DNA of 64,000 nt from an uncultured Gammaproteobacteria bacterium (GTDB lineage: Bacteria; Patescibacteriota; Patescibacteriia; Patescibacteriales; UBA12465): the NCBI GenBank assembly GCA_964470695.1, contig CAYYDR010000002.1:200401-264400 (forward strand). Direction: 5' to 3'. The notes under the pieces were generated by a model, which ran no database searches, had not been told where the DNA came from, and saw only the letters and a program-made list of their open reading frames with translations. The translations under genes were made by a program, and so were the position numbers. Position 1 is the first letter of the stretch. Each line of letters starts with the position of its first letter. Positions 13,971 to 41,003 of this stretch are shown piece by piece.

Positions 13971-13983
13971 CGGATTTATTTTC

Positions 13984-14012
13984 TTGACCCTCGTCTTAGT
14001 AATTGCTATAAT
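13984..14012 (+). promoter_or_regulatory. Sigma70-type promoter
   Basis: TTGACC 13984-13989, 17-nt spacer, TATAAT 14007-14012. It lies upstream of 14043. Confidence 0.55.
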
Positions 14013-14042
14013 ATAAGAAGTTTTTATTAACTTATTTATTTT

Positions 14043-14249
14043 ATGAAAAAATCATTTATCGGCCCCTTATTGACCGTGATTGCCTTGGCCCTGGTCTTGG
14101 CAATGTTTATCTATTTTTATGTCTCTCTGAATCGGATGGAAAAGAGACTGACGACAGTTCAGACTTCTTTAGTAGAAGATTCTGGCAAGATTACCGCTAT
14201 CGTTAATTTCTTTAACGCTAATGCCAATGCCCAGAATACTCAAAAGTAA
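14043..14249 (+). CDS. Small membrane-anchored protein (68 aa)
   Basis: It has an N-terminal TM helix and a tail that aligns with the next gene (IVNFFNANA versus IVTFINNAT). Confidence 0.6.
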   Translation: MKKSFIGPLLTVIALALVLAMFIYFYVSLNRMEKRLTTVQTSLVEDSGKITAIVNFFNANANAQNTQK

Positions 14250-14316
14250 TTTAATAAATAATATAACTAGTCCGGCCGGATCATTAACTCCGCGCCGTGA
14301 CCTAAGTAATAATACT

Positions 14317-14547
14317 ATGAAAAGAGAATTTGTTTTCCCTCTAGTGGTTGGCCTTATCTTAGGCGCTTTAGTAATGATTTTTTGGCAGTTCAATGCCCGT
14401 TTAGCTAACGTCGCCGCCGGCGTCGTCCAGTTAGAACAGGCCACTAGCCAGAACACTAAGACCGTTGGTGACATTGTTACCTTTATTAACAATGCGACTG
14501 GCCAGAAAGCCCCGGCTGCTCCAGCGGCGGAAGCTCCTAAGCAGTAA
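14317..14547 (+). CDS. Small membrane-anchored protein, tandem paralog of 14043-14249
   Basis: I prefer the internal ATG 14317 (MKREFVFPLVVGLILGALV...) because the ORF-track start 14221 overlaps the previous gene. Confidence 0.55.
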   Translation: MKREFVFPLVVGLILGALVMIFWQFNARLANVAAGVVQLEQATSQNTKTVGDIVTFINNATGQKAPAAPAAEAPKQ

Positions 14548-14571
14548 TCTTAGAAATCATAAAATTCTGAG

Positions 14572-14607
14572 CCCTGCCTCTGCTTAAGAGGCAGGGTTTT
14601 TGTTTTT
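14572..14607 (+). terminator. Intrinsic terminator
   Basis: CCCTGCCTC-tgcttaa-GAGGCAGGG followed by TTTTTGTTTTT. Confidence 0.85.
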
Positions 14608-14612
14608 GCTAT

Positions 14613-14641
14613 TTGACGCGCTAGCTTCTTTGGGCTAAAAT
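14613..14641 (+). promoter_or_regulatory. Sigma70-type promoter of hutU, followed by the palindrome ATCACT-ct-AGTGAT (14647-14660) at about +1
   Basis: TTGACG 14613-14618, 17-nt spacer, TAAAAT 14636-14641. The 6-2-6 inverted repeat lies immediately downstream. Confidence 0.5.
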
Positions 14642-14733
14642 AATTAATCACTCTAGTGATAAAGTATTAACAGATTTGCCCTTTAAAATAAGAAAATAAA
14701 CAGTCATTCATTAACTAAGTGAGGAACACGGTC

Positions 14734-16743
14734 ATGAAAAAGAAGTGGTTTAAGGAAGTCAGTGGCGTTAGATTATCATCTTATCTGCCGGCCAAAAAAT
14801 TTTTTAAAGATGGTACTCGTCGCGCGCCTGATCGCGGACTGGAATTAAGTCCTGCCGAAATCAAGTTAGCGCTTCATAATGCTTTGCGCTATTTGCCGGC
14901 AGAGTTACATGCCAAAATGGCACCGGAGTTTTTACAAGAGTTAAAAACAAGGGGCCGGATTTATGGCTATCGTTTTCGCCCGGCCGGAAGAATCAAGGGA
15001 AAGCCGATTAATAGATATGTCGGTATTCCCGAGGCTAGAGCCCTTCAAGTCATGATTGATAATAATCTTGATTTTGAAGTTGCTCTATATCCTTATGAAT
15101 TAGTGACCTACGGAGAAACCGGACAAATTTTTCAGAACTGGATGCAGTATCATCTGGTTAAGAAATATTTGCAGATAATGAATAATAACCAGACTTTAGT
15201 AATTAGCTCCGGACATCCGGTCGGTTTATTTCCGTCTTCTCCTAACGCTCCCAGAGTCATTAGTACTAATGGGCTTCTAGTTGGGAAATGGGATAATCCG
15301 GCTGAATTTAAAAGGCTAGCCGCCCTCGGCGTTTCTAATTATGGTCAGATGACCGCTGGTGGTTGGATGTATATTGGCCCGCAAGGCATTGTCCATGGCA
15401 CTTATATCACCATCTTAAACGCAGCCAGAAAGTATTTAGGCTGGCCCGATGATAAAAATTTGGCCGGTGTTTGTTTTGTCTCTTCTGGTTTGGGAGGCAT
15501 GTCATGCGCTCAGGCTAAAGCTATGAAAATAGCGGGCGGGATTGCTGTTATTGCCGAAGTTGATGATAACCGCATCCGTATGCGCCTAGAACAAGGTTGG
15601 ATAGAAAAAGCCACTAACGATTTATCGGAAGTAGTTAAGCTAATCGCGGAGTATAAAAAATCCGGCCAGTCTTTAGCTTTAGGCTATCATGGTAACGTCG
15701 TTGACTTACTGGAATATCTGGGTGAAAAATTCGTATCAGTTGAATTAATTTCCGATCAGACCTCATGCCATGCCGTTTACGATGGTGGTTATACGCCAGC
15801 CGGACTTAATTTTTTGGCTGGGCGCCAGCTGCTAGGAGAAGACAAGGAGGCCTTCCGCGGTCAAGTTGACCTTTCTCTAAAGCGCCATTTTGCGGCGATT
15901 AAACGGTTGGTAGTAGAACAAGGTGCCCACTTCTGGGACTATGGTAATAGTTTTATGGCTTCAGTTTTTGAAGCCGGCGAAAAATCCATCGCCAAAAATT
16001 CTGAAGATACCAGAGACGGATTTATTTGGCCGTCTTATGTAGAAGACATTATGGGTCCGATTTGTTTTGACCGTGGTTTCGGTCCTTTCCGTTGGGTTTG
16101 TTTAAGTGGTAAACAGGCCGATTTGGATTATACGGATAGAATAGCTTTGAGTTTAATTGACCCTAAGAAAAGTTCTTTGCATTACGATAATCATAATTGG
16201 ATTAAAATGGCGAAGAAAAATAAATTAGTGGTCGGGACTAAGGCGAGAATTCTCTATAATGATGAAGAGGGAAGAATAGAAATCGCGTTAGCTTTTAATA
16301 AGGCGGTTAGAGAAGGAAAAATTGGCGCGGTTATGATTGGCCGTGATCATCATGATGTTTCCGGGACTGATTCGCCATTTCGCGAAACCGCCAATATTTA
16401 TGACGGCAGTCGCCCGACCGCTGACATGTCTGTCCAGTGTTTTGCCGGTAATGTCGCTCGCGGTCTGACTTTAGTTGTCTTATCTAATGGCGGCGGAGTC
16501 GGAATTGGAAGAGCCAGTAATGGCGGCAACGGCATTGTTTTAGACGGTAGCAAAAAGATTGACCGAGTTATCAAAAGCGGCTTATCTTGGGATGTTATGG
16601 GTGGAGTAGCTCGTCGTAATTGGGCTAGAAATCTTGGCGCCATGGAGACAGCTAAACGCTGGAATGAAAAACATTCGGAGGAAGGTCAGATAACCATTCC
16701 GTATTTGGTTGATCCAGATTTGATAGACCAGTTGGTTGATTAA
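14734..16743 (+). CDS. hutU: Urocanate hydratase
   Basis: The signature GGWMYIGPQGIVHGTYIT is present, with full-length collinearity. I prefer the ATG 14734 with GAGGA 8 nt upstream over the GTG at 14719. Confidence 0.93.
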   Translation: MKKKWFKEVSGVRLSSYLPAKKFFKDGTRRAPDRGLELSPAEIKLALHNALRYLPAELHAKMAPEFLQELKTRGRIYGYRFRPAGRIKGKPINRYVGIPEARALQVMIDNNLDFEVALYPYELVTYGETGQIFQNWMQYHLVKKYLQIMNNNQTLVISSGHPVGLFPSSPNAPRVISTNGLLVGKWDNPAEFKRLAALGVSNYGQMTAGGWMYIGPQGIVHGTYITILNAARKYLGWPDDKNLAGVCFVSSGLGGMSCAQAKAMKIAGGIAVIAEVDDNRIRMRLEQGWIEKATNDLSEVVKLIAEYKKSGQSLALGYHGNVVDLLEYLGEKFVSVELISDQTSCHAVYDGGYTPAGLNFLAGRQLLGEDKEAFRGQVDLSLKRHFAAIKRLVVEQGAHFWDYGNSFMASVFEAGEKSIAKNSEDTRDGFIWPSYVEDIMGPICFDRGFGPFRWVCLSGKQADLDYTDRIALSLIDPKKSSLHYDNHNWIKMAKKNKLVVGTKARILYNDEEGRIEIALAFNKAVREGKIGAVMIGRDHHDVSGTDSPFRETANIYDGSRPTADMSVQCFAGNVARGLTLVVLSNGGGVGIGRASNGGNGIVLDGSKKIDRVIKSGLSWDVMGGVARRNWARNLGAMETAKRWNEKHSEEGQITIPYLVDPDLIDQLVD

Positions 16744-16777
16744 AAAGTAGCTAATTTATGGACAGGAGAAATATAAA

Positions 16778-17419
16778 ATGAAAACGCTACTCTTGTTGTC
16801 TAGTAGTAAATTTCTTAACAACGATCTGACTGATTATTTGGGTCGACCCTTAAGCTCTCTGCGAATCGCTCATATCATTGATGCCTCAAAGGGCGAGAAG
16901 GACCCTATTAATTTACCTTGTTTAGGTAGAGCGAGAGGTATATTCCGACAGAATGGTTGTTATTTTGAAGATTTATATCTAGAAGGGAAAAAGGAAACTG
17001 AGCTCCGTAGTATCTTAAAAAGTTTTGACGCCGTCTTTGTTAACGGCGGCAGTACTTTTTATCTATTGCGGGCTGTTCTCGCCAGCGGGTTTGCCGAGGT
17101 TGTTAAAGAGTTATTGCCTCAAGGTCTAATTTATATTGGATCCAGCGCCGGTGCTTATGTAGCTTGCCCCACTATTGAAATGACTCTGTGGATAGATCCG
17201 CATAAGTATGATTATTGCGGGTTAACTGATTTTAAGGCGATGAATTTAGTGCCGTTCTTGGTAACTACTCACTATACCGCCAAGCAGAGAGATATTCTTA
17301 GAGCTAATACCGCTGCCGCTAACTATCCGGTTAAGATTCTTAGTAATAAACAGGCCATCTTAGTAAAAGACGACTATATTCAAATCCTGGGCGGAAAAGA
17401 AATAAAATTGTTTAAATAA
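16778..17419 (+). CDS. Peptidase S51 family (dipeptidase E-like)
   Basis: FVNGGSTFYLLRAV...IYIGSSAGAYVACP (nucleophile Ser motif). An SD sequence AGGAG lies upstream. Confidence 0.75.
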   Translation: MKTLLLLSSSKFLNNDLTDYLGRPLSSLRIAHIIDASKGEKDPINLPCLGRARGIFRQNGCYFEDLYLEGKKETELRSILKSFDAVFVNGGSTFYLLRAVLASGFAEVVKELLPQGLIYIGSSAGAYVACPTIEMTLWIDPHKYDYCGLTDFKAMNLVPFLVTTHYTAKQRDILRANTAAANYPVKILSNKQAILVKDDYIQILGGKEIKLFK

Positions 17420-17447
17420 TTTATAATTTGTTAACCATTTAAAAGCC

Positions 17448-17477
17448 AGCCGCACGACTAGTTCTGCGGCTTTTTTA
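17448..17477 (+). terminator. Intrinsic terminator
   Basis: AGCCGCA-10 nt loop-TGCGGCT followed by T6. Confidence 0.8.
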
Positions 17478-17502
17478 TTATTTTTTGATAGGCGGCAACC
17501 AA

Positions 17503-17531
17503 TTGACAATTTTACCTAATTTTGGTAAATT
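17503..17531 (+). promoter_or_regulatory. Sigma70-type promoter (extended -10) of hisS-hutH
   Basis: TTGACA 17503-17508, 17-nt spacer, TGgTAAATT ending at 17531. Confidence 0.55.
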
Positions 17532-17646
17532 ATCCTGAAGGTCTTTTGATTTAAATACTAAAGATTCTAAGCCCTTTAACATCAAAATAGCAAACACACT
17601 AAGCAAATAAAAAATAAAGTCAATCACAAACAAGACCGGAGGTCTT

Positions 17647-19086
17647 ATGGAAAAGAAACTAGTTAAACCAGACAGCCCGGCAGGGTTTCTGGATTTTCTA
17701 ACACCCGATTTTCTGGCGCGTGAAAGCGCCCTGAAAGTCATAAATAGAGTATTTAGGTCGTATGGATACGACCAGATTGAAGGGCCAGTAGCGGAGTTTC
17801 TGGACGTTCTGATCGGGGAAGACGAAACCAGTAAAAATATCTTTCTTCTCCGTGATAACGGCAGGTCTTCTGTGGAGCAGCAAATGGCTCTCCGTTTTGA
17901 CCTTACCGTTCAAACCGCTCGCATTTTGGCCGCCAATCCTTATGACCCAAAAACTCAGACCGGGATTAAGCTGCCTTGGCGACGCATGGTAGTCGGACCA
18001 GCTTTTAGGACCGATCAGCCGCAAAAAGGGCGGTACCGTCAATTCTATCAGTTTGACATTGATATCTTGGGAACAAGCTCAATGTTAGCTGATGCGGAAG
18101 TGGTTTCTATTATTAATGAAACTTTTCGCGCTCTCGGTATTGAGAGCTTCCTGATAAAAATTAATAATAGAAAAATTCTTAACAGTATCGCGGATTTAGT
18201 AGATTTGCAAAGCCGGCCTAAAGTTGACCGGGAAAATATTCTTCTAGCCATCTTAAGAATCTTGGATAAGATGGAAAAGATAGGTTTGGACGGCGTAGAA
18301 AACGAATTGTTGGCTGTGCCGGAAAGTGAATATGATCCTCGGCCAAATTTATCTCCACTCGCAGTAGAAAAGATAAAAAATCTCCTTTCTATTCCTGGAA
18401 GTAATTTAGAAAAGCTAAAAGCCGCTAAACAGATTTTTGCCGGGATTAAAATTGCCGAAGAAGGAATCGCGGAGCTGGAAGATATTATCCGGCTTTGCCC
18501 CGATGCTTCAGAGGTGGTTGAAGTTAATTTTTCGGTTGTCAGGGGGCTGGATTACTACACTGGCCCAGTTATGGAGACCTCTATTTTAGGTGCTGAGGAA
18601 TTTGGCAGCGTCTTCTCGGGCGGTCGCTATGACAACCTAATGGAACGGTTTACTGGAAAACCTTTACCCGCTGTCGGGGCTTCAATCGGCGTTGATCGCC
18701 TATTTGCCGCTTTAAAGCATTTAGGCCTCATCAAAACCGATAAGCAGTCGGCGACGGAAGTTATTATTCTGGATATTGATGCGTCCCTGACGCAACTCTA
18801 TTTACAGGTAGCAAAGGAAATAAGAACTATGGGCTATAACGTGGAAATCTGTCTATTAGAAGATAAAACGTTTAAGTCCCAGTTCAATTTTGCTCTTAGC
18901 CGGGGAGCAGCCTTTATGATAATTCTGGGCGCTGATGAAGCAGCCCGGGGAGTTGTCAAATTAAAAGACCTGTCTTCCCGCAAACAGATTGACCTTACTT
19001 TTTCTGAGCTAGCTCATTATTTTCAGAAGCTAGCAATAACAGAACTCGCAAATAAAATGATTGTAGGAGTTAAGCATGAAACGTAG
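17647..19086 (+). CDS. hisS: Histidine--tRNA ligase (archaeal/eukaryal-like motif set)
   Basis: RFDLTVQTAR, motif 2 FRTDQPQKGRYRQFYQFDIDILG, motif 3 GGRYDNL...PAVGASIGVDRL, and a C-terminal anticodon-binding domain. Confidence 0.9.
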   Translation: MEKKLVKPDSPAGFLDFLTPDFLARESALKVINRVFRSYGYDQIEGPVAEFLDVLIGEDETSKNIFLLRDNGRSSVEQQMALRFDLTVQTARILAANPYDPKTQTGIKLPWRRMVVGPAFRTDQPQKGRYRQFYQFDIDILGTSSMLADAEVVSIINETFRALGIESFLIKINNRKILNSIADLVDLQSRPKVDRENILLAILRILDKMEKIGLDGVENELLAVPESEYDPRPNLSPLAVEKIKNLLSIPGSNLEKLKAAKQIFAGIKIAEEGIAELEDIIRLCPDASEVVEVNFSVVRGLDYYTGPVMETSILGAEEFGSVFSGGRYDNLMERFTGKPLPAVGASIGVDRLFAALKHLGLIKTDKQSATEVIILDIDASLTQLYLQVAKEIRTMGYNVEICLLEDKTFKSQFNFALSRGAAFMIILGADEAARGVVKLKDLSSRKQIDLTFSELAHYFQKLAITELANKMIVGVKHET

Positions 19087-20749
19087 AATAATAGAAACCG
19101 TGGTCCTTAACGGCCACAATTTGACAATGGAGGAAGCTGTTGCGATTGCTCGCGGCAGCTTTGATCATCAAGGAAAAAGAGTTTATCCACTTGTTTCCTT
19201 AGACCCTCAAGCCAGAAACGATATTAAAGAATTTCGCGATGGCTTAGAAGCAAGAATCGCTGCTGGCGATATTATTTACGGCGTTAATACCGGTTGCGGA
19301 ATTAAAAAAGGCACCATAATCCCTAATGATGAAATTGATGATTATCAGGCTCACTATATTCCGGCACATTGCGTGGGATTTGGAGAACCTTTTAGCGAAG
19401 AAATAGTCAGATTAGCAATGGTGCTCAGAGTTAATTCTTTTGCCCTAGGACACTCCGGTGTCCGTTTAGAAATATGTGAGAAGATCCTGGAGTTATACAA
19501 CAAGAACGTCATACCATTTATTCCTGAAAAAGGTTCAGTCGGTGCTAGCGGAGATTTATGCCCTCTGGCTCATATGTCAGCTACTATGCTCGGATTGACC
19601 GGACAGCAGGCTTACTGGGTGGGCTCTCTAATGGAAGCCAAAGAAGCTTTGAAAATGGCAGGAATAGAATCAATAACCCTTAGAGCTAAGGAGGCGATGG
19701 GCCTGACCAATGGATCCACCTTTACCTTAGCTATTGGACTGTTAGCGGTTTATGACGCCAGAAAATTATTCTCGTATTCTAATTTTGCCGCCGCCTTATC
19801 ACTTGAAGCAATAAGAGGTGAAAAGGCTGCTTTTGATCCTCGTGTCCACAAAGCCCGTAAGAATTCTTATAGTATGGAAGTAGCTGAGACTATTCTTGAT
19901 TTAACTAAGAATTCTCAGCGCATGACTGCCGGGTCTCAGGCCGTTTGTCTGGAAGCAGAAAAGAAAATAAAAAAATACGATGACCGTTGGCATGAAAAAA
20001 CTCTTCCTCGGGTTCAAGACGCCTATTCTTTTAGGGGCTACCCTCAGGTTGCCGGGCCAGTCTTGAAGAATTTGGAATATGCTTATCAGGTATTTATTGA
20101 TGAGATAAATGCCGCAACGGATAATCCTCTGATTTTTAAGATTAAAACTGAAGGACAACCGGATAGATTTGAAACACTGTCTGGCGGTAATTTCCACGGC
20201 GAACCATTGGCTCAGGCTGTAGCGATATTGGCTATTGGCATGCAGAGTCTGGCCGGTATCTCTGATCGCCGATTCTATTCGCTAACAATGCCATCAACTA
20301 GTTACGGTTTGCCGGCTGATTTAGTCGGTCCAACTAAAAGTGATTTGAACACTGGATTTATGATTCTCCAATACACTACAGCCTCTCTAGTATCGGAGAA
20401 TAAAATACTTTGTTATCCAGCTGTTGTGGACTCTATACCCACCTCAGCAAACCAAGAGGACTACGTAAGCATGGGCATAATTGGCGCCCGTAACTTGCGT
20501 GAAGTCATCAACAATACCTACGGAATTATTGCTGCCGAATTATTAGCAGCGGCTCAAGGCATCTCTTTAACTGAAGATGAATTAAAAACCTCGAGCCACA
20601 GCAAGTTAGGCGACAAAACAACTTTGATCTTTAACAATATTCGTAAAGTTGTGCCCCCTATGCTAGAGGATAGATACATTTATACCGACTTTAGAAAAAT
20701 GATAGATTATCTCTTAGAGCATAATCCCGAAGACCTATTCGCCGACTAA
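19076..20749 (+). CDS. hutH: Histidine ammonia-lyase
   Basis: MIO-forming GSVGASGDLCPLAH. The start overlaps the hisS stop by 11 nt, and an SD sequence AGGAG lies at 19065-19069. Confidence 0.93.
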   Translation: MKRRIIETVVLNGHNLTMEEAVAIARGSFDHQGKRVYPLVSLDPQARNDIKEFRDGLEARIAAGDIIYGVNTGCGIKKGTIIPNDEIDDYQAHYIPAHCVGFGEPFSEEIVRLAMVLRVNSFALGHSGVRLEICEKILELYNKNVIPFIPEKGSVGASGDLCPLAHMSATMLGLTGQQAYWVGSLMEAKEALKMAGIESITLRAKEAMGLTNGSTFTLAIGLLAVYDARKLFSYSNFAAALSLEAIRGEKAAFDPRVHKARKNSYSMEVAETILDLTKNSQRMTAGSQAVCLEAEKKIKKYDDRWHEKTLPRVQDAYSFRGYPQVAGPVLKNLEYAYQVFIDEINAATDNPLIFKIKTEGQPDRFETLSGGNFHGEPLAQAVAILAIGMQSLAGISDRRFYSLTMPSTSYGLPADLVGPTKSDLNTGFMILQYTTASLVSENKILCYPAVVDSIPTSANQEDYVSMGIIGARNLREVINNTYGIIAAELLAAAQGISLTEDELKTSSHSKLGDKTTLIFNNIRKVVPPMLEDRYIYTDFRKMIDYLLEHNPEDLFAD

Positions 20750-20798
20750 GAAAGCTTGTTCATAAAATAATTAAGTAATTTTAATCAATAATTTATCC

Positions 20799-20830
20799 CC
20801 GGCCCCTGAAATAAACAGGAGCCGGTTTTT
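20799..20830 (+). terminator. Intrinsic terminator
   Basis: CCGGCcCCTG-aaataaa-CAGGaGCCGG followed by T5. Confidence 0.7.
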
Positions 20831-20845
20831 ATTTTTAAATCTTAT

Positions 20846-20875
20846 TTGACACGCATAGTATAAAAATGGTATATA
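20846..20875 (+). promoter_or_regulatory. Sigma70-type promoter (extended -10)
   Basis: TTGACA 20846-20851, 18-nt spacer, TGgTATATA ending at 20875. Confidence 0.5.
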
Positions 20876-20942
20876 TTTTAGTTAAATTAGTTCATTAATA
20901 AAAAATCAATTTATTTTTAATTATTTTCCAAGGAGCATTGTA

Positions 20943-21758
20943 ATGAATAAACTTGTTTTAATGGATTTAGATTTAACTTTAATTGATCGGGGGTATAACT
21001 TAACCGTTCCCTTGGACCAGATCAGGCCTGTTGTAGCGGCCGCTAAAATGAGGGGAATAACTATGGGACTAAATTCTGATTCTCCCTATGAATCACTTAG
21101 ACGTTGGTATGATAGCCTTGGTTTAAATGGACCGATTATTTCCGAAAGAGGGGCGAGAGTGTATTTGCCCGATTGGCCGACCCCGATAGATTTTTCCTCG
21201 CCTGGCGCTAGTCTTTTCCCGCGTCTGAGAGAAGATTTTATCAAAAATCTCCCCTCAGTTTGTTCTCATGTTCTTTGTGGCGATGCTAATAATCTGCAAG
21301 CTCAGCCTCGTCCCGATCCAGTCGGCGATAAATTCATTATAGTTAATGGTTATCGTGAGAGGAGTATTAGTTTTTTTGCTCGTCAGGTCGGTCCCGATGG
21401 CAAGCTTATCGCCGAACCAGACTTGCTTAAAAAGGCGGCTAGCCTCCTTAATGATTTGGCCCAGAAGTATCCCTTGCTTTGGGAAGAAAGAGATATTGAT
21501 GATAACCCAGATTACTGCATTTATATAATGCACAGCCGGATTTCCCAGAAACATTCTACGGTAGTTAGGCTACTAAATGAGTTTAATTTAGAGCAGCTAT
21601 GGATGGTGGGCGATAATCTGCCCGATTTCATAGATGACTTAAGGGTTAATCATGTCGCCGTCGCTAACGCCCGCGACACCTTCAAGGCCAAAGCTAAAAT
21701 AATAACCGCTAAGCCCATTACCGAAGGAGTATTAGAATTTTTAGAAGCCTTAGCTTAA
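20943..21758 (+). CDS. HAD-superfamily phosphatase (Cof/IIB-like)
   Basis: Motif I LMDLDLTLID, late motif VGDNLPDFIDD, and an SD sequence AAGGAG. Confidence 0.6.
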   Translation: MNKLVLMDLDLTLIDRGYNLTVPLDQIRPVVAAAKMRGITMGLNSDSPYESLRRWYDSLGLNGPIISERGARVYLPDWPTPIDFSSPGASLFPRLREDFIKNLPSVCSHVLCGDANNLQAQPRPDPVGDKFIIVNGYRERSISFFARQVGPDGKLIAEPDLLKKAASLLNDLAQKYPLLWEERDIDDNPDYCIYIMHSRISQKHSTVVRLLNEFNLEQLWMVGDNLPDFIDDLRVNHVAVANARDTFKAKAKIITAKPITEGVLEFLEALA

Positions 21759-21792
21759 GATTTTATCTTAAGGTGTTGGTATTTTTTAGACA

Positions 21793-21819
21793 GCAGCTGA
21801 ACCAATCGGCTGCTTTTTT
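21793..21819 (+). terminator. Intrinsic terminator
   Basis: GCAGCTG-aaccaat-CGGCTGC followed by T6. Confidence 0.75.
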
Positions 21820-21894
21820 ATAGCCATTTTGTTTATCTATTTTAAGATTTTTATTGATTTTTTGACTTTAATCTGTCATTATTTTAGTAAGCAT

Positions 21895-22557
21895 ATGTTT
21901 GATAGAGCTAAAACAATTTTTTTTGATTTGGATGGAACTCTCTATAAGATGAAGGGTGGTTCTTATAATGAATCGCCGCTTAAGCGTTATGTTCTAAAAA
22001 ACGCGGCCTCTTTTATTTCTTTTAGACTAAAAAAGAAAAAAACTGAAGGCAAGCGAATATTGGAAAGTATTCTAAAAAAATACGAAGAAGAGATAAGTAT
22101 TGGTGTGGAAAAAGAACTAGGTTTAGATCGTCATGATTATTTTAATACAGTTTGGGATATTCCCGCTCGCTCTATAGTTAGTCGGGAGAGGAATTTACGC
22201 GTCAATCTTTTAAAGTTAAAAAAACGTTATCGTCTGGTAATTATATCGGACGCCCCATTAGTCTGGACTAGAAATGTTTTAGTTGAGCTGGGGATATATG
22301 ATATATTTAAGACTAATATTTTCTCCGGAGAGAGTAATATTCGTAAAGGATTTAAGACCGCCTTCCCAAGTATCATGAAAACCCTGAAAGTTAAAGCAGA
22401 GGAGTGTATTTCCGTTGGAGACCAGGAGCATAGCGATATAATACCGGCTAAAAAATTAGGCCTTAAGACCGTTTTTATCAGCCAGACCCAGAAATCAGTC
22501 TCAGCTGACTATAATATTAAATCTATTAAAGAATTAGCAGATCTATTATTAAAATAG
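21895..22557 (+). CDS. HAD-superfamily hydrolase (subfamily IA-like)
   Basis: FFDLDGTLYK at the N-terminus when started from ATG 21895, plus SVGDQEHSDI. The ORF-track start 21829 would add a nonsensical hydrophobic leader across the promoter. Confidence 0.65.
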   Translation: MFDRAKTIFFDLDGTLYKMKGGSYNESPLKRYVLKNAASFISFRLKKKKTEGKRILESILKKYEEEISIGVEKELGLDRHDYFNTVWDIPARSIVSRERNLRVNLLKLKKRYRLVIISDAPLVWTRNVLVELGIYDIFKTNIFSGESNIRKGFKTAFPSIMKTLKVKAEECISVGDQEHSDIIPAKKLGLKTVFISQTQKSVSADYNIKSIKELADLLLK

Positions 22558-22701
22558 AAATAACTTTTTGCTTTGGCCAAAGCATAAAAAGGTGGTGTTT
22601 TTCTCTTGACTCTTTTAAGTATATATGTCATACTTAATTGAGTTATTTTTTTTATTTTTTAGTAGTTCATTAATAAAAATATTTTTTATCAAGGAGATAA
22701 A

Positions 22702-23583
22702 ATGAAATCAGTGATAATACAATTACTAGAGAGCTTGTTGCAAGCCGAGTTTATCGGTGAATATTCCCCAGGACATATGGGAGCATCAGTCTTACGTTTC
22801 AAACATCTAGTCAAAGGGGCATTGGTAGTTAAAATAGCTGCTGATGATGGGTCTATGGCCGCTCAAGACATAGCTGATAACCTAGTCGGGTATCAAAAAA
22901 TAAGACTTATAGGAGGGGGAGGCATCCTGCCCGACAACCTAGAAGAATTGACCGTTCCAGGCTATAAGGCCATTGTAATGAGTGATTTGGGTAAAGCTAT
23001 CCGTTACTCAGAAAAATGCCCTATTAAAGCTAAACTTCTCTGGCTCCACTATCTGGATATTGTTATGGTGACTAGGAAGACGGCCTCTAAATTAGCCAGC
23101 GATTACAATCCCAAGCTTTTTATTGAAGAGGTTTTAGAAGCTATCAAGCGCTTTGAAGGAGAAGGGGCGGTAATTTCTAGTGCTATCAGCCAGTCTGATT
23201 TATCTGATAATTATGGCGACCCCGCTCTAATGCTGCTTGATTTTACTCCTGATAACGTTTTTATGACCCCAGCCAATCTATCTTTCATAGACCCCTGGAA
23301 ACAGAAGAGTTATCTAGGCCATCCGGCAGTTAGCATCGGTCAGTTCGTTACCTTATGCCGTATTTATGCGGTAAACGGTTATGAAGAAGCGAATAGCTTC
23401 TTAAGAAAGACTTGCCTTAATGAGATGCCGAAATTGATTGATTGCAGCCCTAAATCAGTAGAGAAAGCTTTTCGCTTGGGAGCTACTTTACAGCTGGTTT
23501 TATCGGCTTATGTTCGCCGGGTCTCTGAGCCGGAAAGAGCGGAAGCCTTTCTAGACGAGGCCAAACAATTGTGGGTGCAGTGA
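22702..23583 (+). CDS. Kinase-like protein (aminoglycoside/choline-kinase phosphotransferase fold)
   Basis: VVKIA (beta3 Lys) and LLDFTPDNVFM...SFIDPW, resembling the HxDxxxxN...D catalytic loop. A strong SD sequence AAGGAG is present. Confidence 0.45.
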   Translation: MKSVIIQLLESLLQAEFIGEYSPGHMGASVLRFKHLVKGALVVKIAADDGSMAAQDIADNLVGYQKIRLIGGGGILPDNLEELTVPGYKAIVMSDLGKAIRYSEKCPIKAKLLWLHYLDIVMVTRKTASKLASDYNPKLFIEEVLEAIKRFEGEGAVISSAISQSDLSDNYGDPALMLLDFTPDNVFMTPANLSFIDPWKQKSYLGHPAVSIGQFVTLCRIYAVNGYEEANSFLRKTCLNEMPKLIDCSPKSVEKAFRLGATLQLVLSAYVRRVSEPERAEAFLDEAKQLWVQ

Positions 23584-23587
23584 TTTG

Positions 23588-23618
23588 GGGTGGTGTTCTA
23601 ACAGACATCACCCTTTTT
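23588..23618 (+). terminator. Intrinsic terminator
   Basis: GGGTGGTGT-8 nt loop-ACATCACCC followed by T5. Confidence 0.75.
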
Positions 23619-23668
23619 ATAAAAAATAACTCAAAATATATCTAAGGGCGAGGTAGGGAGCAGATTAT

Positions 23669-23697
23669 TTGACATAATTCTACGAATAAGCTATTAT
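23669..23697 (+). promoter_or_regulatory. Sigma70-type promoter of the His-leader/PRTase-like unit
   Basis: TTGACA 23669-23674, 17-nt spacer, TATTAT 23692-23697. Confidence 0.6.
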
Positions 23698-23714
23698 TGT
23701 ATTAATCGTAAAAT

Positions 23715-23792
23715 ATGAATAATTATCAATTAATCACAATCTCTATCCATCATCACAATCACCTCTCCCGAGAAGAGATTAATTTTGGTTAA
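23715..23792 (+). CDS. Candidate 25-codon His-rich leader peptide MNNYQLITISIHHHNHLSREEINFG
   Basis: The ATG is 18 nt after the -10 element. Codons CAT CAT CAC AAT CAC lie at 23748-23762, and a terminator lies 38 nt after the stop. There is no clear SD sequence. Confidence 0.45.
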   Translation: MNNYQLITISIHHHNHLSREEINFG

Positions 23793-23829
23793 TTATTTTT
23801 TAAGATAAATTAAACTAACCTAACTTGAT

Positions 23830-23850
23830 CCCTTCTCAGAAGGGTTTTTT
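23830..23850 (+). terminator. Leader (attenuator-type) intrinsic terminator
   Basis: CCCTTC-tca-GAAGGG followed by T6. It sits between the promoter and the SD-preceded start at 23912. Confidence 0.6.
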
Positions 23851-23911
23851 GTTTTAAATGGCAAATGATAGTTCCTTTAAAAATTTTATAAACATAAACG
23901 GAGGAAGGACG

Positions 23912-24796
23912 ATGAATCGATCCTACATAGTTTCGCAAGATATCCAACTGCTCTTAAAACAATGGGCAGGACAGAGAAATTTTATTTTACCATCAGCAGA
24001 CTTCTTTGCCGCTTCACGTTTAAGAATGACTGAGAAGTTAGAGCAGATTTTCAAGCATGTCAAAATGCTTGAAGAAGAGGATTTGCAAAAAGGTGCTGCG
24101 AGCCTTATCCAGCATAGTATTTTCCCGGTCGTCTCTCTAGACAGAATTTATGTGGAGGCCGAACATTATTTAGACTTGACGCGCTTATCAATAATCGCCG
24201 ATAGCGTATTTAATGAAATTGGTCTGCAGAGCAGACACGGAGCGCCCAGTATAGATGATCAAGTTAATTTGTTAATGCTTGATTTATCTGAGCAAAAGCT
24301 CCCTTGGACTATAGCCTTATTTGATGACGTTATCTATTCGGGAAACGGAATCTTAAAAGTTATAGATCTATTGAAAAAAGTCGGTGTGACAGTGGCCGAA
24401 GTTTACGTGGCTGTCGGCGTTACTAAGGGGGTAGATAAAATTCGAGCCCGAGACATCCCAGTAAAGTGTGTTTACGAATTTGATGAAGTAATTGATGAAA
24501 TTTGTGAGCGTGATTTTTTCCCTGGCGTCCCCTTGTCCGGCAAATTGATAGACGGAGTAAGACATACCTACCTTTCCTTAGAAAACATTGGTGATTGTGC
24601 CTCTATTCCCGAGGAACACCAGAGAGACTTTTCATTATTTTGTTGGCAGCAGACAGCTGAATTGTTTGCCGCTATTGAAGAGTGCTCGGGTAAGCCAGTC
24701 CTATGTCGCGATTTGGGCGTTTTAATCCATGGCATTCCCACTAACGGTACGCGTTATGTAGAAGCCATAGAAACTGTTCTTTTAAGCCTTAACTAA
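23912..24796 (+). CDS. Type I phosphoribosyltransferase-like protein of unknown specificity
   Basis: PRPP-loop-like IALFDDVIYSGNGILKVIDLLKKVG. I prefer the ATG 23912 with GGAGGA 6 nt upstream over ATG 23858, which abuts the terminator. Confidence 0.5.
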   Translation: MNRSYIVSQDIQLLLKQWAGQRNFILPSADFFAASRLRMTEKLEQIFKHVKMLEEEDLQKGAASLIQHSIFPVVSLDRIYVEAEHYLDLTRLSIIADSVFNEIGLQSRHGAPSIDDQVNLLMLDLSEQKLPWTIALFDDVIYSGNGILKVIDLLKKVGVTVAEVYVAVGVTKGVDKIRARDIPVKCVYEFDEVIDEICERDFFPGVPLSGKLIDGVRHTYLSLENIGDCASIPEEHQRDFSLFCWQQTAELFAAIEECSGKPVLCRDLGVLIHGIPTNGTRYVEAIETVLLSLN

Positions 24797-24828
24797 ACTG
24801 AGGTTAGTCTCGAATAGTTTAGAAGAAT

Positions 24829-24857
24829 AACCGGTAATCTAATTTACCGGTTTTTTA
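24829..24857 (+). terminator. Intrinsic terminator
   Basis: AACCGGTAA-6 nt loop-TTACCGGTT followed by T6. Confidence 0.85.
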
Positions 24858-24876
24858 TTTCTAAATGGCGTTATAG

Positions 24877-24905
24877 TTGACTTTTTCTCAGAAATTAGGC
24901 ATTAT
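24877..24905 (+). promoter_or_regulatory. Sigma70-type promoter
   Basis: TTGACT 24877-24882, 17-nt spacer, CATTAT 24900-24905. Confidence 0.45.
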
Positions 24906-24940
24906 TATCTTAGTAAATCACAATAAAATTGACTAAAAAT

Positions 24941-25483
24941 ATGAAAGAAACAGACAGAAAACTACAAATAGGCGTGATGGGCTCAGCCGCCGACTTAAAT
25001 TATTCTAAGAATATAGAAGAATTGGCTTTTGCGATTGGCCAGGAAGTTGCTAAAAGCGGCAATATTACTGTTTACGGAGCCGAAAAAGATTATGATTCTT
25101 TATCAACGGCGGCTTCTCGGGGCGCTAAAAGTCTTAACGGTTTAACGGTCGGAGTAACTTATGGTAAAGGGAAGGACATTTGGGACAAAGAAGGCAATAC
25201 GGATGTTATTATTGTAACTGGTTTGGAGCGTGGCGGGGGGAGAGAATTTGTTTTGGTAAATTCTTGTGATGTGATTATTATTGTCTCAGGTGGCTCAGGA
25301 ACTTTAACCGAATCAGCTATTGCTTATCAGATGAATATTCCTATTATCGCTTTATCCGGTACGGGCGGTTGGGCTGATAAATTAGCCGATACTTATATTG
25401 ACGAAAGACAGCGAGTGAAAGTTGTGTCCGCCCAAACCCCCCAAGAAGCGGTCGCTTTAGCGATTAAGTTAGCTAAAAATTAA
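24941..25483 (+). CDS. LOG/TIGR00725-like Rossmann protein (nucleotide-binding, possible phosphoribohydrolase family)
   Basis: IGVMGSA...GLERGGGREFVLVNSCDVIIIVSGGSGTLTE. The ATG 24941 lies inside the ORF that the track starts at TTG 24929. Confidence 0.55.
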   Translation: MKETDRKLQIGVMGSAADLNYSKNIEELAFAIGQEVAKSGNITVYGAEKDYDSLSTAASRGAKSLNGLTVGVTYGKGKDIWDKEGNTDVIIVTGLERGGGREFVLVNSCDVIIIVSGGSGTLTESAIAYQMNIPIIALSGTGGWADKLADTYIDERQRVKVVSAQTPQEAVALAIKLAKN

Positions 25484-25553
25484 ATTAAATAGTAGTTAGC
25501 GTTTTTAGATTCTTTAATAAATTAATATAAACTAAAATCATTGAGGAGTGCCA

Positions 25554-26087
25554 ATGAAAACAATGACCGTAGAACCAGATTTAGCCACAGCCGTAAAAGA
25601 GGCAGAAATCTTAGCTATTAAACACGGCGGCTTTTACGCTATTATTCTTGATAACTGGCGGGGCTGGTATTTTATATATGATAGTCCTGAGGTTAGACTA
25701 TGCAATAATGATTGTGCTAATTGCAAATTGTATGAAGCGGTTAGCAGCAGTAGTGAAAATTCTCAGTACGCTCATTTTTTTGAAGCTAGTGAGTTAGATA
25801 AGAAGATGTTCGGGCCGCATAATTTCCGCAATTGCAAAACTCTGGATGGTTACAAAAAATCCTATGAATATTTTCTGGTAAATGAAACTAATTCACCAGA
25901 AGAAATTAAAGATGAACTTGATTTACTTTTAGGCATGAGAATAGTCTATGCTCAGGAGGGGAGCTCTTCTGATTTAGAGCTTAGCTTCAAGCGATCAGTT
26001 ATTGACTCTGTTTTGGCTCAGTGTGAAAAAGCTAAAAGCAACATAATTCGCGAGCATCTTTTGTCTAGAAATTTTTCAATCAGTTAA
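25554..26087 (+). CDS. Hypothetical protein (177 aa)
   Basis: ORF with a GAGGAG SD sequence upstream of ATG 25554. I recognise no motifs. Confidence 0.5.
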   Translation: MKTMTVEPDLATAVKEAEILAIKHGGFYAIILDNWRGWYFIYDSPEVRLCNNDCANCKLYEAVSSSSENSQYAHFFEASELDKKMFGPHNFRNCKTLDGYKKSYEYFLVNETNSPEEIKDELDLLLGMRIVYAQEGSSSDLELSFKRSVIDSVLAQCEKAKSNIIREHLLSRNFSIS

Positions 26088-26110
26088 AAGAAGCGTTATT
26101 ACTAAAGCTC

Positions 26111-26138
26111 TTGACATATTTATAATTTATGTTAATAT
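26111..26138 (+). promoter_or_regulatory. Sigma70-type promoter upstream of tRNA-His
   Basis: TTGACA 26111-26116, 16-nt spacer, TAATAT 26133-26138. Confidence 0.45.
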
Positions 26139-26189
26139 TCAATATTAAATTATAAGTCCTTTTAATAACAGATCAAACAAAGCTGAACC

Positions 26190-26263
26190 GGGTTCGTAGC
26201 TCAGTTGGTCAGAGCGCCAGATTGTGGATCTGGAGGTCGTGGGTTCGATCCCCACCGTTCCCT
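26190..26263 (+). tRNA. tRNA-His (anticodon GTG at 26224-26226), atypical acceptor end
   Basis: Manual cloverleaf. The D arm is GCTC/GAGC, the anticodon arm is CCAGA-TTGTGGA-TCTGG, and the T arm is GTGGG-TTCGATC-CCCAC. The acceptor GGGTTCG/CGTTCCC has two U:U mismatches (4:69 and 5:68). Position -1 is C, the discriminator is T, and no CCA is encoded. Confidence 0.7.
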
Positions 26264-26266
26264 CGC

Positions 26267-26299
26267 ACGGCAATTCTTTAAATGAATTGCCGTTTTTTT
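26267..26299 (+). terminator. Intrinsic terminator after tRNA-His
   Basis: ACGGCAATTC-7 nt loop-GAATTGCCGT followed by T7. Confidence 0.85.
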
Positions 26300-26314
26300 A
26301 TTATTATCTCTCGG

Positions 26315-26343
26315 TTGACACTAACGCCCTGAATTGCTATATT
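26315..26343 (+). promoter_or_regulatory. Sigma70-type promoter
   Basis: TTGACA 26315-26320, 17-nt spacer, TATATT 26338-26343. Confidence 0.55.
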
Positions 26344-26403
26344 TTATTATTGGTTCTTTTATAAACGGATTTACTTAACAACGATCAATATCCCGGAGGT
26401 TCA

Positions 26404-27003
26404 ATGCCTAACTCAGATGTAATATTAGGGGTAGTAGATGAAGAAGAGCATTTTTATCTTCCTGCTATTATTCCCGCAACCCTAACTAACGGCGACTCTG
26501 CCATCAAGGCAGCTTTGAAATTTTATCAAAAAGCCGGCCTAGTCCCGTCTGGCCTGGAATGTCCAGCCATGAATATTGTCCCCCATAAATTGTTTAAGTT
26601 AGCGACATTAGGGGAAGCGTTTACTTCTAATGGCAGTAGTTTAGACGACAACTGTCTGACCGTGGAACAATCCATATTATTTATATCCAATTTTCGTCAC
26701 TGGATTATAAAAGATGGTAATATCACTTGCTGTTTCTTACTAAAAATAGATGAACAGTATAAAGCGGTTTGCCTTTCCATGTGGCCGAGCTGGTATGAAA
26801 ATTTGACGATTCGTTTTGTAAGGTCCAACCTTTTGGTCCCTTTTCAGAATTTGTCGGTTAATCAATCGGGAGCTAAAAGCCAGGAAGATTGTCTGGGAAT
26901 GATAGGCGATGGTAATGCTATCCTGCAGATTTTTCCAGTCAATCATCCCGAATTATTATCTCCGGAGATGAATATTATAGTTTTATTGCCGTCTTGCCCT
27001 TAA
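26404..27003 (+). CDS. Hypothetical protein (199 aa)
   Basis: ORF with a GGAGG SD sequence. I recognise no motifs. Confidence 0.5.
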   Translation: MPNSDVILGVVDEEEHFYLPAIIPATLTNGDSAIKAALKFYQKAGLVPSGLECPAMNIVPHKLFKLATLGEAFTSNGSSLDDNCLTVEQSILFISNFRHWIIKDGNITCCFLLKIDEQYKAVCLSMWPSWYENLTIRFVRSNLLVPFQNLSVNQSGAKSQEDCLGMIGDGNAILQIFPVNHPELLSPEMNIIVLLPSCP

Positions 27004-27019
27004 CGGCTCGTCGTAAAGT

Positions 27020-27047
27020 CCTCTTTTAAACTTAAAGAGGGCTTTTT
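27020..27047 (+). terminator. Intrinsic terminator
   Basis: CCTCTTT-7 nt loop-AAAGAGG, then gc and T5. Confidence 0.6.
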
Positions 27048-27051
27048 AATT

Positions 27052-27083
27052 AAAAAAGCATCGGTTTATAGCCGATGCTTTTT
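27052..27083. terminator. Bidirectional terminator between convergent genes
   Basis: A6-GCATCGG-7 nt loop-CCGATGC-T5. Confidence 0.75.
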
Positions 27084-27106
27084 GGTATTTTCGTTAACCG
27101 TTTTTA

Positions 27107-27739
27107 CTAACTTAATCCTAGCAGGGCGGTAATATATATCAACAAGAGGTTGGTAATATACAGAAGACTCCCGGCCTGGAGACCGGCGACACCGTCATCC
27201 ATCATTACCCCAAATGGACTTTCTAGCTGATCAAAAAATTTGACCGGCCAGATCTTGATAATATCAAATAATCGGAAATAACCAAACCCTATAATTAGTA
27301 GAACAGCCATTTTCCAGGAAATAGTTTCAACGCTTATTAGCCCTAAGAAAATTGGGTAATAAGTAATAAACATTCCCCAGATTTCATCAACGACGATGTT
27401 ATTCTGGTCGTGAGTTTTGGTTTTTCCTTTCCAATCAACCCGTGGTCCGATTACCTTCTCGGCTAATCCGATGGTTGTGCGCCCCAAGAAGTAAATATAG
27501 ATCAATATGCTGGCATATTTTACTATTGCCCCATATAAATCGCAGGATCCGTCTGTCAGGGTCGGCTGGCAGCAAACCGCCATAGCGGCTAGACAAAATG
27601 GGATAGCGAATAGACTGCCCCAGGTGCCTGCCATACTCTTTTTGGTTATAGACGGGATAAACCCCGTATAGAACCAGCTAGCGATAAAGACAGCTAGTTT
27701 TTCGTTGAAATCTCTTCCTAGCATAATCTGTTTCTCCAT
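27107..27739 (-). CDS. pgpA: Phosphatidylglycerophosphatase A family protein
   Basis: PgpA-like blocks MAGTWGSLFAIP, NIVVDEIWGM, FRLFDIIKIWP and GVMMDDGVAG. Confidence 0.7.
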   Translation of the reverse strand: MEKQIMLGRDFNEKLAVFIASWFYTGFIPSITKKSMAGTWGSLFAIPFCLAAMAVCCQPTLTDGSCDLYGAIVKYASILIYIYFLGRTTIGLAEKVIGPRVDWKGKTKTHDQNNIVVDEIWGMFITYYPIFLGLISVETISWKMAVLLIIGFGYFRLFDIIKIWPVKFFDQLESPFGVMMDDGVAGLQAGSLLYITNLLLIYITALLGLS

Positions 27740-27895
27740 TTAGTGTTTAAAGTTTGTTATAGTCTAAATTTCTATTTAAATGAACGCCCGCCACTAATTA
27801 ACTATTATTTCAGGTATACTATTTTTATTTATAAAAGTCAAATGGATAATCTCAGTCGGCCGTCTTTTTGGCTAGTTCAGGAAATTCTATCTTTG

Positions 27896-30096
<2,201 letters not shown>

Positions 30097-39913: not shown

Positions 39914-40034
39914 ATGGTTATAGTTGTTTAACCAATGAATGACGCAATTTGGCGGGGAAGTCCAGGCCTCAGAAGTAGATAAACTGTAGGTAACTTTTCT
40001 TTACTTTTAGGCTATTTTGAGTTATATTTTAAGT

Positions 40035-40207
40035 GCTAAACCGTAACCAAATTTCGTGAAGTCGCACCCATTATTGGGTGGCCTTGGCTTATTTGCATAC
40101 AGGAACGGACACACCGACCCTTATGCAAGTAGGCGTCTTCACGGACACTGATTGCGGTTTAGCGACCGGGTCGGGTGTCCGTTTTTGTATTTACGGACAT
40201 CGGACAT
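40035..40207. repeat. Repeat- and inverted-repeat-rich spacer upstream of the recombinase
   Basis: (A)CGGACA occurs 4 times in direct orientation (40105, 40141, 40193, 40200) and once inverted (40176-40182). Long-range complements are GCTAAACCG 40035-43 / CGGTTTAGC 40155-63, CGTGAAGTCGC 40055-65 / GCGTCTTCACG 40133-43, and ACGGACACACCGACCC 40105-20 / GGGTCGGGTGTCCGT 40168-82 followed by T5. Confidence 0.5.
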
Positions 40208-40232
40208 TCATAACTTATTAATTAAATAATCT

Positions 40233-40568
40233 ATGAAAAAATGTCCATTTTGTTCCGAAGAAATTCAGGACGAGGCCATTAAGTGCAAGCATTGCGCCTC
40301 AGATTTAGTGGTCACCGTAGTCAACGGTGAAAAAATAAACAAACTAACCTGCAAGCAATGTGGCGGAGAAATGGTAAGAAGAAAAATTTATAGCAATATT
40401 GGCTCGTCTCTGCTTATTTTTTTCTTAGGATTTATTTTCGCCCCTTTTAGTAACGTTATAGGCGGAGCATTATTCATTGTTGGTTTGATTTTATTCATTA
40501 TTAGAATAGCATCCCCAAAAAGATATTGGGTATGTAATAAGTGTAGCTACAAGATTGAGAAGTGGTAA
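40233..40568 (+). CDS. Double zinc-ribbon membrane protein (111 aa)
   Basis: CPFC...CKHC and CKQC...CNKC flank two TM helices. Confidence 0.55.
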
Positions 40569-40577
40569 TAAAATAAT

Positions 40578-41003
40578 CTATAGTTCTTCTCTGCTTTTTT
40601 GGCCGCTCTCCATGTCTTTAATAGTGGAATCCAGTTCTTCATCGGACATATTCGAGAGATTCTTATGTCCGCAAGTCTTACAATGATCACCCGGTATCGG
40701 GGCTACCGGACTTATGGGCAACGGATTAGACATATAGTTTTCATGATTATGAGATAAATAAAATTTAGAGGCATTTATATTGCCCTTCTTAGCCTGAGAA
40801 ATAAGCGACATCTCTACTATTTCGTTGGTTCCCATTCTCCCTTGTTCTAAAGCAATATTTACTCTTTGCTTGAAATCCGAATTATCTTTTAGCCAACGAT
40901 ATATAGTTGCCCGAGAAATGCCTATTTTCTTGGCTGCATAGTAGATAGTAGGCATTTCTCGGAGAAACTCAATAAATCTAGATTTTTCCTGACTAGACCT
41001 CAT
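40578..41003 (-). CDS. HTH DNA-binding protein (phage terminase-small-subunit-like N-terminus)
   Basis: TIYYAAKKIGISRATIYRWLKDNSDF...KFYLSHNH. The start overlaps the methylase stop by 11 nt. Confidence 0.5.
   Translation of the reverse strand: MRSSQEKSRFIEFLREMPTIYYAAKKIGISRATIYRWLKDNSDFKQRVNIALEQGRMGTNEIVEMSLISQAKKGNINASKFYLSHNHENYMSNPLPISPVAPIPGDHCKTCGHKNLSNMSDEELDSTIKDMESGQKSREEL

Follow-up and report, generated by a model that had tools for sequence, protein, structure and literature searches.

The 64,000-nt stretch of DNA analysed here (hereafter the window) contains, on the forward strand at positions 26190–26263, a gene for tRNA-His(GUG) in which no G-1 is encoded. The gene was called by ARAGORN as tRNA-His(gtg) (26190–26264) and matched the Rfam family RF00005 at 26190–26263 (65.7 bits, E = 4.7e-12; threshold 29 bits), and its delineation is further supported by sequence reading and family covariation. 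A cloverleaf above the gathering threshold and the GUG anticodon (GTG at 26224–26226) place it among the histidine isoacceptors. Position 1 is G26190, which forms the pair G1:C72, position -1 is C26189, and the discriminator at position 73 is T26263 (U73). With C-1 and U73 the gene lies outside the canonical bacterial definition of tRNA-His, in which an encoded G-1 pairs with C73; an 8-bp acceptor register including C-1 was ruled out, as C-1 cannot pair with U73. The 5' strand of the acceptor stem (GGGTTCG, 26190–26196) faces CGTTCCC (26256–26262), which places U26193 opposite U26259 (4:69) and U26194 opposite U26258 (5:68), and exactly two non-standard acceptor-stem pairs were flagged by Rfam. 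A first-pass annotation made from the sequence alone had reported the C at -1, the T discriminator, and the two U:U pairs in an otherwise sound cloverleaf, and all of these readings were borne out.

The gene is flanked by putative expression signals of its own. A promoter-like site on the same strand (26111–26138) consists of TTGACA starting at 26111, a 16-nt spacer, and TAATAT, with a TG upstream of the latter. CCA is not encoded, and the bases following position 73 (CGCACGG) form the opening of the hairpin of an intrinsic terminator (26267–26300, forward strand; 10-bp stem and T run), which begins 4 nt past the discriminator and whose hairpin itself spans 26267–26293. Within the surrounding gene island, an Rfam scan yielded neither a T-box nor a His leader nor any other Rfam family.

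This island has a size of 13.9 kb (13971–27924) and encompasses hutU, a peptidase S51 gene, a histidyl-tRNA synthetase gene (hisS2), hutH, two HAD hydrolase genes, an unannotated ORF, a phosphoribosyltransferase-like gene, a SLOG/LOG-like gene, a second unannotated ORF, the tRNA-His gene, a third unannotated ORF, and pgpA. It is directly followed by ligA (27925–30096), whose product is 65–72% identical to proteins of the Patescibacteria group and Candidatus Falkowbacteria. Among relatives with a long contig, locus L136 has the most similar LigA (72% identity). Its GT2, ligA, gatC/gatA, dsbA, and tRNA-Ser(GGA) genes are collinear with those of the window, but GT2 and ligA are separated there by only about 760 bp, and the island is absent from this site. 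Judging from this comparison, the hisS2/tRNA-His/hut module is an accessory indel island in Falkowbacteria-like Patescibacteria. Neither boundary repeats nor a distinct base composition of the island were found. About 11 kb to its right, the window contains a large serine recombinase gene (38558–39913, reverse strand), a ParB-N6/N4 DNA methylase fusion (40993–42330, reverse strand), and a LexA/S24-like repressor gene (42706–43371); the region 38558–43371 is a possible integrated mobile element. To the left of the island, three cupredoxin-like ORFs of about 205–210 amino acids (4237–4866, 8893–9507, and 9551–10186) are interleaved within 4237–10186 with two ORFs of more than 1300 amino acids whose function is unassigned (86–4258 and 4873–8865).

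The synthetase encoded by hisS2 (17647–19086, forward strand), referred to as HisRS2, is a divergent member of the 'DLT' class of histidyl-tRNA synthetases with intact catalytic motifs. It scored 335.8 bits against the TIGR00442 equivalog (cut-off 286.75), carries the signatures RGLDYY, GGRYD, and GASIGVDR (HisA, HisB, and motif 3), and contains the anticodon-binding domain PF03129. The most similar solved structures are those of the Nostoc, Elizabethkingia, and human HisRS, in agreement with the archaeal/eukaryal style ascribed to this hisS by the first-pass annotation. The stop of hisS2 overlaps by 11 nt (19076–19086) with the start of a histidine ammonia-lyase-like gene (hutH; 19076–20749, forward strand) that contains the MIO motif ASG, and a urocanate hydratase gene (hutU; 14719–16743, forward strand; TIGR01228, 404 bits, above cut-off) is located upstream.

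Contigs encoding the closest homologs of the window HisRS2 were collected as relatives, and six further distinct loci were recovered: L001 (identical to L002 and L124), L126, L128, L132, L130, and L133. Their HisRS2 proteins are 72–53% identical to that of the window. The adjacency of hisS2 and hutH is kept in all seven patescibacterial loci; hutU and a gene for an AstE/AspA-family hydrolase are often close by, and hutU also adjoins hisS2 in L130 and L132. The overlap and the conserved adjacency suggest a translational coupling of tRNA charging to histidine catabolism. The genes between 20943 and 25483 of the window, namely those of the two HAD hydrolases, an unannotated 293-amino-acid ORF with a kinase-like 'LLDFTPDNVF' motif (judged by eye), and the phosphoribosyltransferase-like and SLOG/LOG-like proteins, are all conserved in L001 and L126 and may encode a pathway for small molecules (imidazole or nucleotide-linked) that is associated with the hut genes. 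L130 and L133 have an accessory gene set unlike that of the window island: a TrpR-family regulator, a CntK_N (histidine racemase-like) protein, a GNAT acetyltransferase, and an M15 peptidase are encoded upstream of the tRNA-His/HisRS2/hutH core (L130, 6829–7626; L133, 575–1327), and a ZIP metal transporter downstream of it.

Clustering at 50% identity divides HisRS2 proper into about three clusters, a compact group that covers CPR members and Desulfobacterales. No HisRS2 was found on viral contigs, and no close homologs were detected on phages or plasmids. In Desulfonema magnum (L131; CP061800, 5259869–5281263), a HisRS2-type gene is located beside gatB, dnaK/grpE, tilS, and ftsH, with no hut genes, and the HisRS2-type enzyme in Desulfobacterales looks like a housekeeping HisRS.

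A tRNA-His(GUG) gene was found at a distance of 0.1–7 kb from the hisS2-hutH pair in all seven loci, despite their differing gene arrangements. The acceptor strands of the six genes from relatives are GGGTTCG/CGTTCCC in L001 (U at -1, A at 73), GGGTCCG/CGGGCTC in L126 (A at -1, U at 73), GGACGCG/CGCGTCC in L128 (U at -1, A at 73), GGGTGCG/CGCGCCC in L132 (C at -1, A at 73), GGGTGTG/CACGCCC in L130 (A at -1, U at 73), and GGGTACG/CGTACCT in L133 (G at -1, U at 73). Together with the window gene, position 73 is thus U in four and A in three of the seven, and C in none. Position -1 varies freely (C, U, A, U, C, A, and G, with the window first), and G1:C72 is present in six of the seven genes. On this alignment, the missing G-1:C73 pair is a family trait of the HisRS2-linked tRNA-His, and position -1 is unconstrained. 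The GGG/CCC at the top of the acceptor stem is mostly kept, and pairs 4–6 drift. The TTGACAT...TATGTTAATAT block of the promoter-like site recurs in L001 and L126, and hairpins equivalent to the terminator are located 3' of the tRNA-His gene in all six loci from relatives.

The U:U pairs and the missing G-1 could also mark a non-functional copy, that is, a decaying pseudogene, as had been considered in the first-pass annotation, or an assembly artefact. In favor of this explanation, the acceptor stem contains two neighboring pairs that are not Watson-Crick, and the single-sequence fold shows no extra stability compared to shuffled sequences (z = -0.63). However, the Rfam score of the gene is high, and the seven-sequence alignment shows cloverleaf pairing in 96.6% of cells, a value that falls to 33–51% in slid registers. 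Both sides have changed in eight of the 21 pairs, which none of 500 shuffles reached, and such compensatory substitutions are accompanied by the conserved promoter and terminator. The tandem U:U (4:69 and 5:68) is confined to the sublineage of the window and L001; in other family members the same positions are paired as U:G, C:G, G:C, or A:U, which indicates ongoing selection for the helix. The acceptor stem with both U:U pairs is identical in three independent assemblies (the window, L001 from ENA, and L002 = L124 from JGI), and the U:U pairs are therefore not a sequencing error at 26193–26194 or 26258–26259, a possibility that had likewise been raised. Decay or artefact is effectively refuted as an explanation and retains next to no probability. 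The U:U pairs are a quirk of one sublineage and lie outside the shared identity set of the family tRNA-His.

When a pattern of the tRNA body without the acceptor stem was used to scan genome contigs, at least 120 loci were matched, with no Patescibacteria among the matches listed. Among these listed matches, two classes could be distinguished. The canonical class (Nitrospirales, Planctomycetes, Verrucomicrobia, Chlamydiia, Bacteroidales, and others) has G-1, C73, and a fully paired stem, whereas in the alphaproteobacterial class position -1 is not conserved, G1:U72 and A73 are present, and CCA is encoded. A scan of metagenome contigs retrieved one true family member (identical to L002) and two canonical genes. 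By its sequence, the window tRNA-His fits neither class. Genes of the alphaproteobacterial type (no G-1, G1:U72, A73) were also observed in L079, L081, L096, L099, and L114, which stem from metagenome-assembled genomes labeled Calditrichaeota, Hydrogenedentes, Nitrospiraceae, Acidobacteria, and Iamia; this reflects either bin contamination or a spread of this tRNA type beyond the RCS clade.

In the HisRS-tRNA complex of Thermus thermophilus, three arginines (Arg7, Arg115, and Arg122) and, from the other subunit, a Gly72'Gly73' loop hold G-1 and its 5' phosphate, and in the Caulobacter HisRS two aspartates take the place of the GG (PMC4357726). HisRS2 of the window reads 'PAGFLDF' at the N-terminus and 'DNGRSSVEQQ' at the pocket loop. 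By homology, the N-terminal position compared here is presumably that of Arg7, and the pocket loop that of Gly72'Gly73'. Across the HisRS2 family, the N-terminal signature is 'P(G/A)GFLDF' and the basic residue is absent in 117 of 120 sequences, and the GG loop is found in only five of 120, being otherwise variable or deleted. The canonical CPR HisRS, in contrast, contains 'PKGTRDW' and the GG loop in all of the best 120 matches. HisRS2 thus lacks both features that characterize a G-1-dependent HisRS of the T. thermophilus/E. coli type, the Gly-Gly pocket loop and the basic residue that precedes the N-terminal Gly, but keeps Q118, R121, and R123 (Escherichia coli numbering) and all catalytic signatures. 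The GG is retained in the sublineage of L130 and L133. The N-terminal Lys is also absent in many other DLT-class HisRS representatives, whose tRNA type is unassigned, and the N-terminal feature alone is therefore not diagnostic. Loss of the motif-2 Arg (E. coli R116) was given less weight as a sign of G-1 independence, since the G-1-dependent human HisRS has Asn at this position. These residues fit an enzyme that no longer cradles the -1 nucleotide, although they are only suggestive in this respect.

The first-pass annotation had also considered a post-transcriptional addition of G-1, in which a Thg1-like 3'-5' nucleotidyltransferase would supply the nucleotide and the canonical 429-amino-acid, G-1-dependent HisRS described below would charge the tRNA. 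A73, as in eukaryotes, is indeed present in three of the seven family tRNAs, some bacterial Thg1-like proteins can add a G opposite A73 (PMC3245924), and related genomes encode a canonical HisRS whose GG pocket is intact. The alternation between A and U at position 73 among close relatives is at odds with this route, because templated Thg1-like addition, the mode tied to C73, would yield U-1 or A-1, and eukaryal-type Thg1 requires A73 (PMC3245924), so that U73 fits neither known mode of Thg1. A Thg1 domain (PF04446) was found neither in the island nor in the 30 ORFs scanned in the 64 kb of genome covered by the window. The tight linkage of the tRNA gene to a HisRS2 without G-1-contacting features would also be left unexplained. 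Addition of G-1 after transcription is consequently regarded as very improbable.

The canonical 429-amino-acid enzyme is relevant to the role of HisRS2 in the cell. In L130 (NCBI GCA_900089805.1) and L133, the hut-linked hisS2 is located 8–9 kb from a second hisS that codes for this protein. The latter has more than 120 homologs with 70–81% identity, named Patescibacteria or Falkowbacteria histidine--tRNA ligase, and is therefore the housekeeping enzyme of the lineage. Both HisRS types share the contig fingerprints 831,406 bp, 25,859 bp, and 400,209 bp; HisRS2 and the canonical HisRS hence coexist in at least two related genomes, and in a third according to contig fingerprint. Between L130 and L133, HisRS2 is 77.5% and the canonical HisRS 79.8% identical, and this similar divergence indicates that both are under selection and maintained. 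In another Falkowbacteria genome (L134/L135), the canonical hisS resides in the same MgsA/response-regulator context without the hut/HisRS2 module.

These data bear on a further explanation, according to which the genome of the window would have no tRNA-His besides this one and would rely on HisRS2 as its sole or main HisRS, the canonical G-1 system having been completely replaced as in the RCS alphaproteobacteria. Neither a canonical HisRS nor any other second hisS, nor a second tRNA-His, is present in the 64-kb window, and no canonical HisRS with the contig fingerprint of the window (313,167 bp) or with that of 585,309 bp occurs among the best 120 matches, all of at least 70% identity. Moreover, the housekeeping context of the HisRS2 subfamily in D. 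magnum (gatB, dnaK, tilS, and ftsH) shows that such an enzyme can be the main one. This support extends over 64 kb of the genome and over matches of at least 70% identity, however, and it is opposed by the ubiquity and conservation of the canonical HisRS in the group, by its presence alongside HisRS2 in L130, L133, and the 400-kb contig, and by the rarity of HisRS2 among Patescibacteria, where it is located on an indel island. Complete replacement thus appears unlikely, with perhaps one chance in a few of being correct. No canonical G-1:C73 tRNA-His was seen in the HisRS2-bearing sequence examined, and a dual system would follow from the situation in the relatives. The first-pass annotation had proposed that a canonical tRNA-His elsewhere in the genome would make the window copy a pseudogene; this rule fails, because such a gene would be the second member of a dual system.

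The explanation that we consider probable is that the window gene gives rise to a functional tRNA-His without G-1 at any stage, which serves as the cognate substrate of the neighboring HisRS2, both being island-borne and likely parallel to a canonical pair. The tRNA gene is self-contained, having a sigma-70-type promoter and an intrinsic terminator of its own. This anatomy is directly visible, as are the conservation and covariation of the tRNA, its linkage to HisRS2, the indel character of the island, and the co-occurrence of both HisRS types in relatives. Following the known rules for RNase P, the transcript would be cut at the normal -1/+1 site, leaving a 7-bp acceptor stem that starts with G1, because no G-1:C73 pair extends the helix (PMC3245924). 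The 3' trailer would then be trimmed and CCA, which is not encoded, would for this reason have to be added enzymatically. HisRS2 is predicted to charge this tRNA mainly via the GUG anticodon, like the enzymes of Caulobacter, Acanthamoeba, and Trypanosoma. The requirements toward the acceptor stem look relaxed, with GGG/CCC mostly kept, A or U at position 73, and drifting pairs 4–6, and such relaxed constraints could account for the fast drift of these pairs and for the tolerance of the tandem U:U in the window and L001. The HisRS2/tRNA-His pair is inherited with hutH and hutU as an accessory island, and two parallel HisRS/tRNA-His systems per cell are most likely, with the island pair co-expressed with histidine degradation. 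The presence of a canonical pair in the genome of the window, the orthogonality of the two pairs, the processing site, and the role of HisRS2 as charging enzyme are parts of this scheme that we infer. In its strictest form, two mutually orthogonal HisRS/tRNA-His pairs, a canonical one with G-1:C73 and a G-1-less one on the island, would serve the same CAU and CAC codons in one cytoplasm, the latter co-expressed with histidine degradation; this proposal is tentative, and we rate its chances at somewhat less than even.

In Bacteria, the RCS alphaproteobacteria are the sole lineage known to lack an encoded G-1, and the unusual HisRS is known only from this group (PMC4338351, PMC3245924). A survey of tRNA identity in the CPR reported archaeal rules for Tyr and Trp and nothing for His (PMC5370408), and nothing relevant on the HisRS of CPR or Desulfobacterales, or on a HisRS linked to hut genes, was found in the literature searched, the coverage of which was incomplete. 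The family described here resembles the RCS system (Caulobacter crescentus; Wang et al., 2007; Yuan et al., 2011, PMC3064791) as a bacterial tRNA-His without encoded G-1 and with a discriminator other than C, which is combined with a eukaryote-like 'DLT'-class HisRS with an altered G-1 pocket and, presumably, with identity residing in the anticodon. It differs from the RCS system in several respects. HisRS2 is 33–35% identical to the chromid-borne HisRS of Cereibacter sphaeroides and Ruegeria, and 31% identical to that of Prevotella, which uses G-1, so that the RCS enzymes are no closer. The RCS HisRS have 'PKGFRDY', the loop 'DED-GD', and 'NEKPGPGR' in motif 2, whereas HisRS2 has 'GGFLDF' and 'PQKGR'; thus neither a close relationship to the RCS type, nor acidic residues in place of GG, nor the 'EKPGPGR' of motif 2 was found. 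CCA is encoded in the RCS tRNA, which has A73 and, as an identity element, G1:U72; the family tRNAs mostly lack CCA and combine G1:C72 with U or A at 73. The window tRNA-His accordingly shares with the RCS type the absence of an encoded G-1, but has neither G1:U72 nor A73. Finally, the RCS pair is the sole housekeeping system, whereas the pair described here is part of an accessory hut island, with a canonical HisRS alongside in relatives.

The cytosolic systems of Acanthamoeba castellanii and Trypanosoma brucei (PMC3561963, PMC4338351) likewise have no G-1 on tRNA-His, recognition there resting on the anticodon, and A. castellanii also combines a canonical with a non-canonical HisRS. These systems are eukaryotic, however, with the enzymes in separate compartments (cytosol and mitochondrion) and always A73, and the T. 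brucei and T. cruzi HisRS match the window HisRS2 weakly (E about 1e-28 to 1e-30). The (8/4) tRNA-His of alphaproteobacterial phages (Mukai et al., 2017, PMC5389517) also has no G-1 and carries A73 or U73, but is phage-borne and has an 8/4 arrangement of acceptor and T stem, whereas that of the window tRNA-His is a standard 7/5. With the canonical bacterial tRNA-His, whose G-1:C73 pair is kept by RNase P, the window gene shares the GUG anticodon and the overall cloverleaf, its D arm and anticodon loop being identical to those of many canonical genes; it differs from this system in the lack of G-1 and C73 in the tRNA and of the Arg7 equivalent and the conserved GG loop in the synthetase. G-1-less tRNA-His and G-1-independent HisRS are thus already known as a kind, and it is the accessory and possibly dual-system setting that is unusual here. 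By sequence comparison, HisRS2 and its tRNA-His apparently constitute a second case in Bacteria, independent of the first, in which histidine identity has been rewired. The suggestion of the first-pass annotation that identity rules are rewired in this lineage is thereby supported by a tRNA family without G-1:C73 and its linked HisRS2, with the qualification that the route is a dedicated paralogous synthetase on a hut island. That the hisS is such a paralog, that relatives carry a canonical HisRS, and that the U:U pairs are restricted to one sublineage are points beyond that annotation.

Few tRNA identity marks are as universal as G-1 on tRNA-His. If Bacteria have indeed found a second, independent solution, G-1 identity was abandoned more than once in this domain, here with a HisRS subfamily, an acceptor signature, and a genomic setting different from those of the RCS alphaproteobacteria. 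If the tRNA-His of Desulfobacterales also lacks G-1, the HisRS2 sisters would mark a large, unrecognized bacterial G-1-less clade. If the pair coexists with a canonical one, it would represent a natural orthogonal aminoacyl-tRNA synthetase/tRNA duplicate for a standard amino acid, which would bear on how identity sets are replaced in evolution and offer a ready-made pair for genetic-code engineering. The dual-pair reading would, if true, also capture how a synthetase with foreign identity rules can gain entry to a genome only along with its own tRNA. For the reduced genomes of the CPR, the coupling of hisS2 and hutH points to a so far unexplored connection of tRNA charging with amino-acid catabolism.
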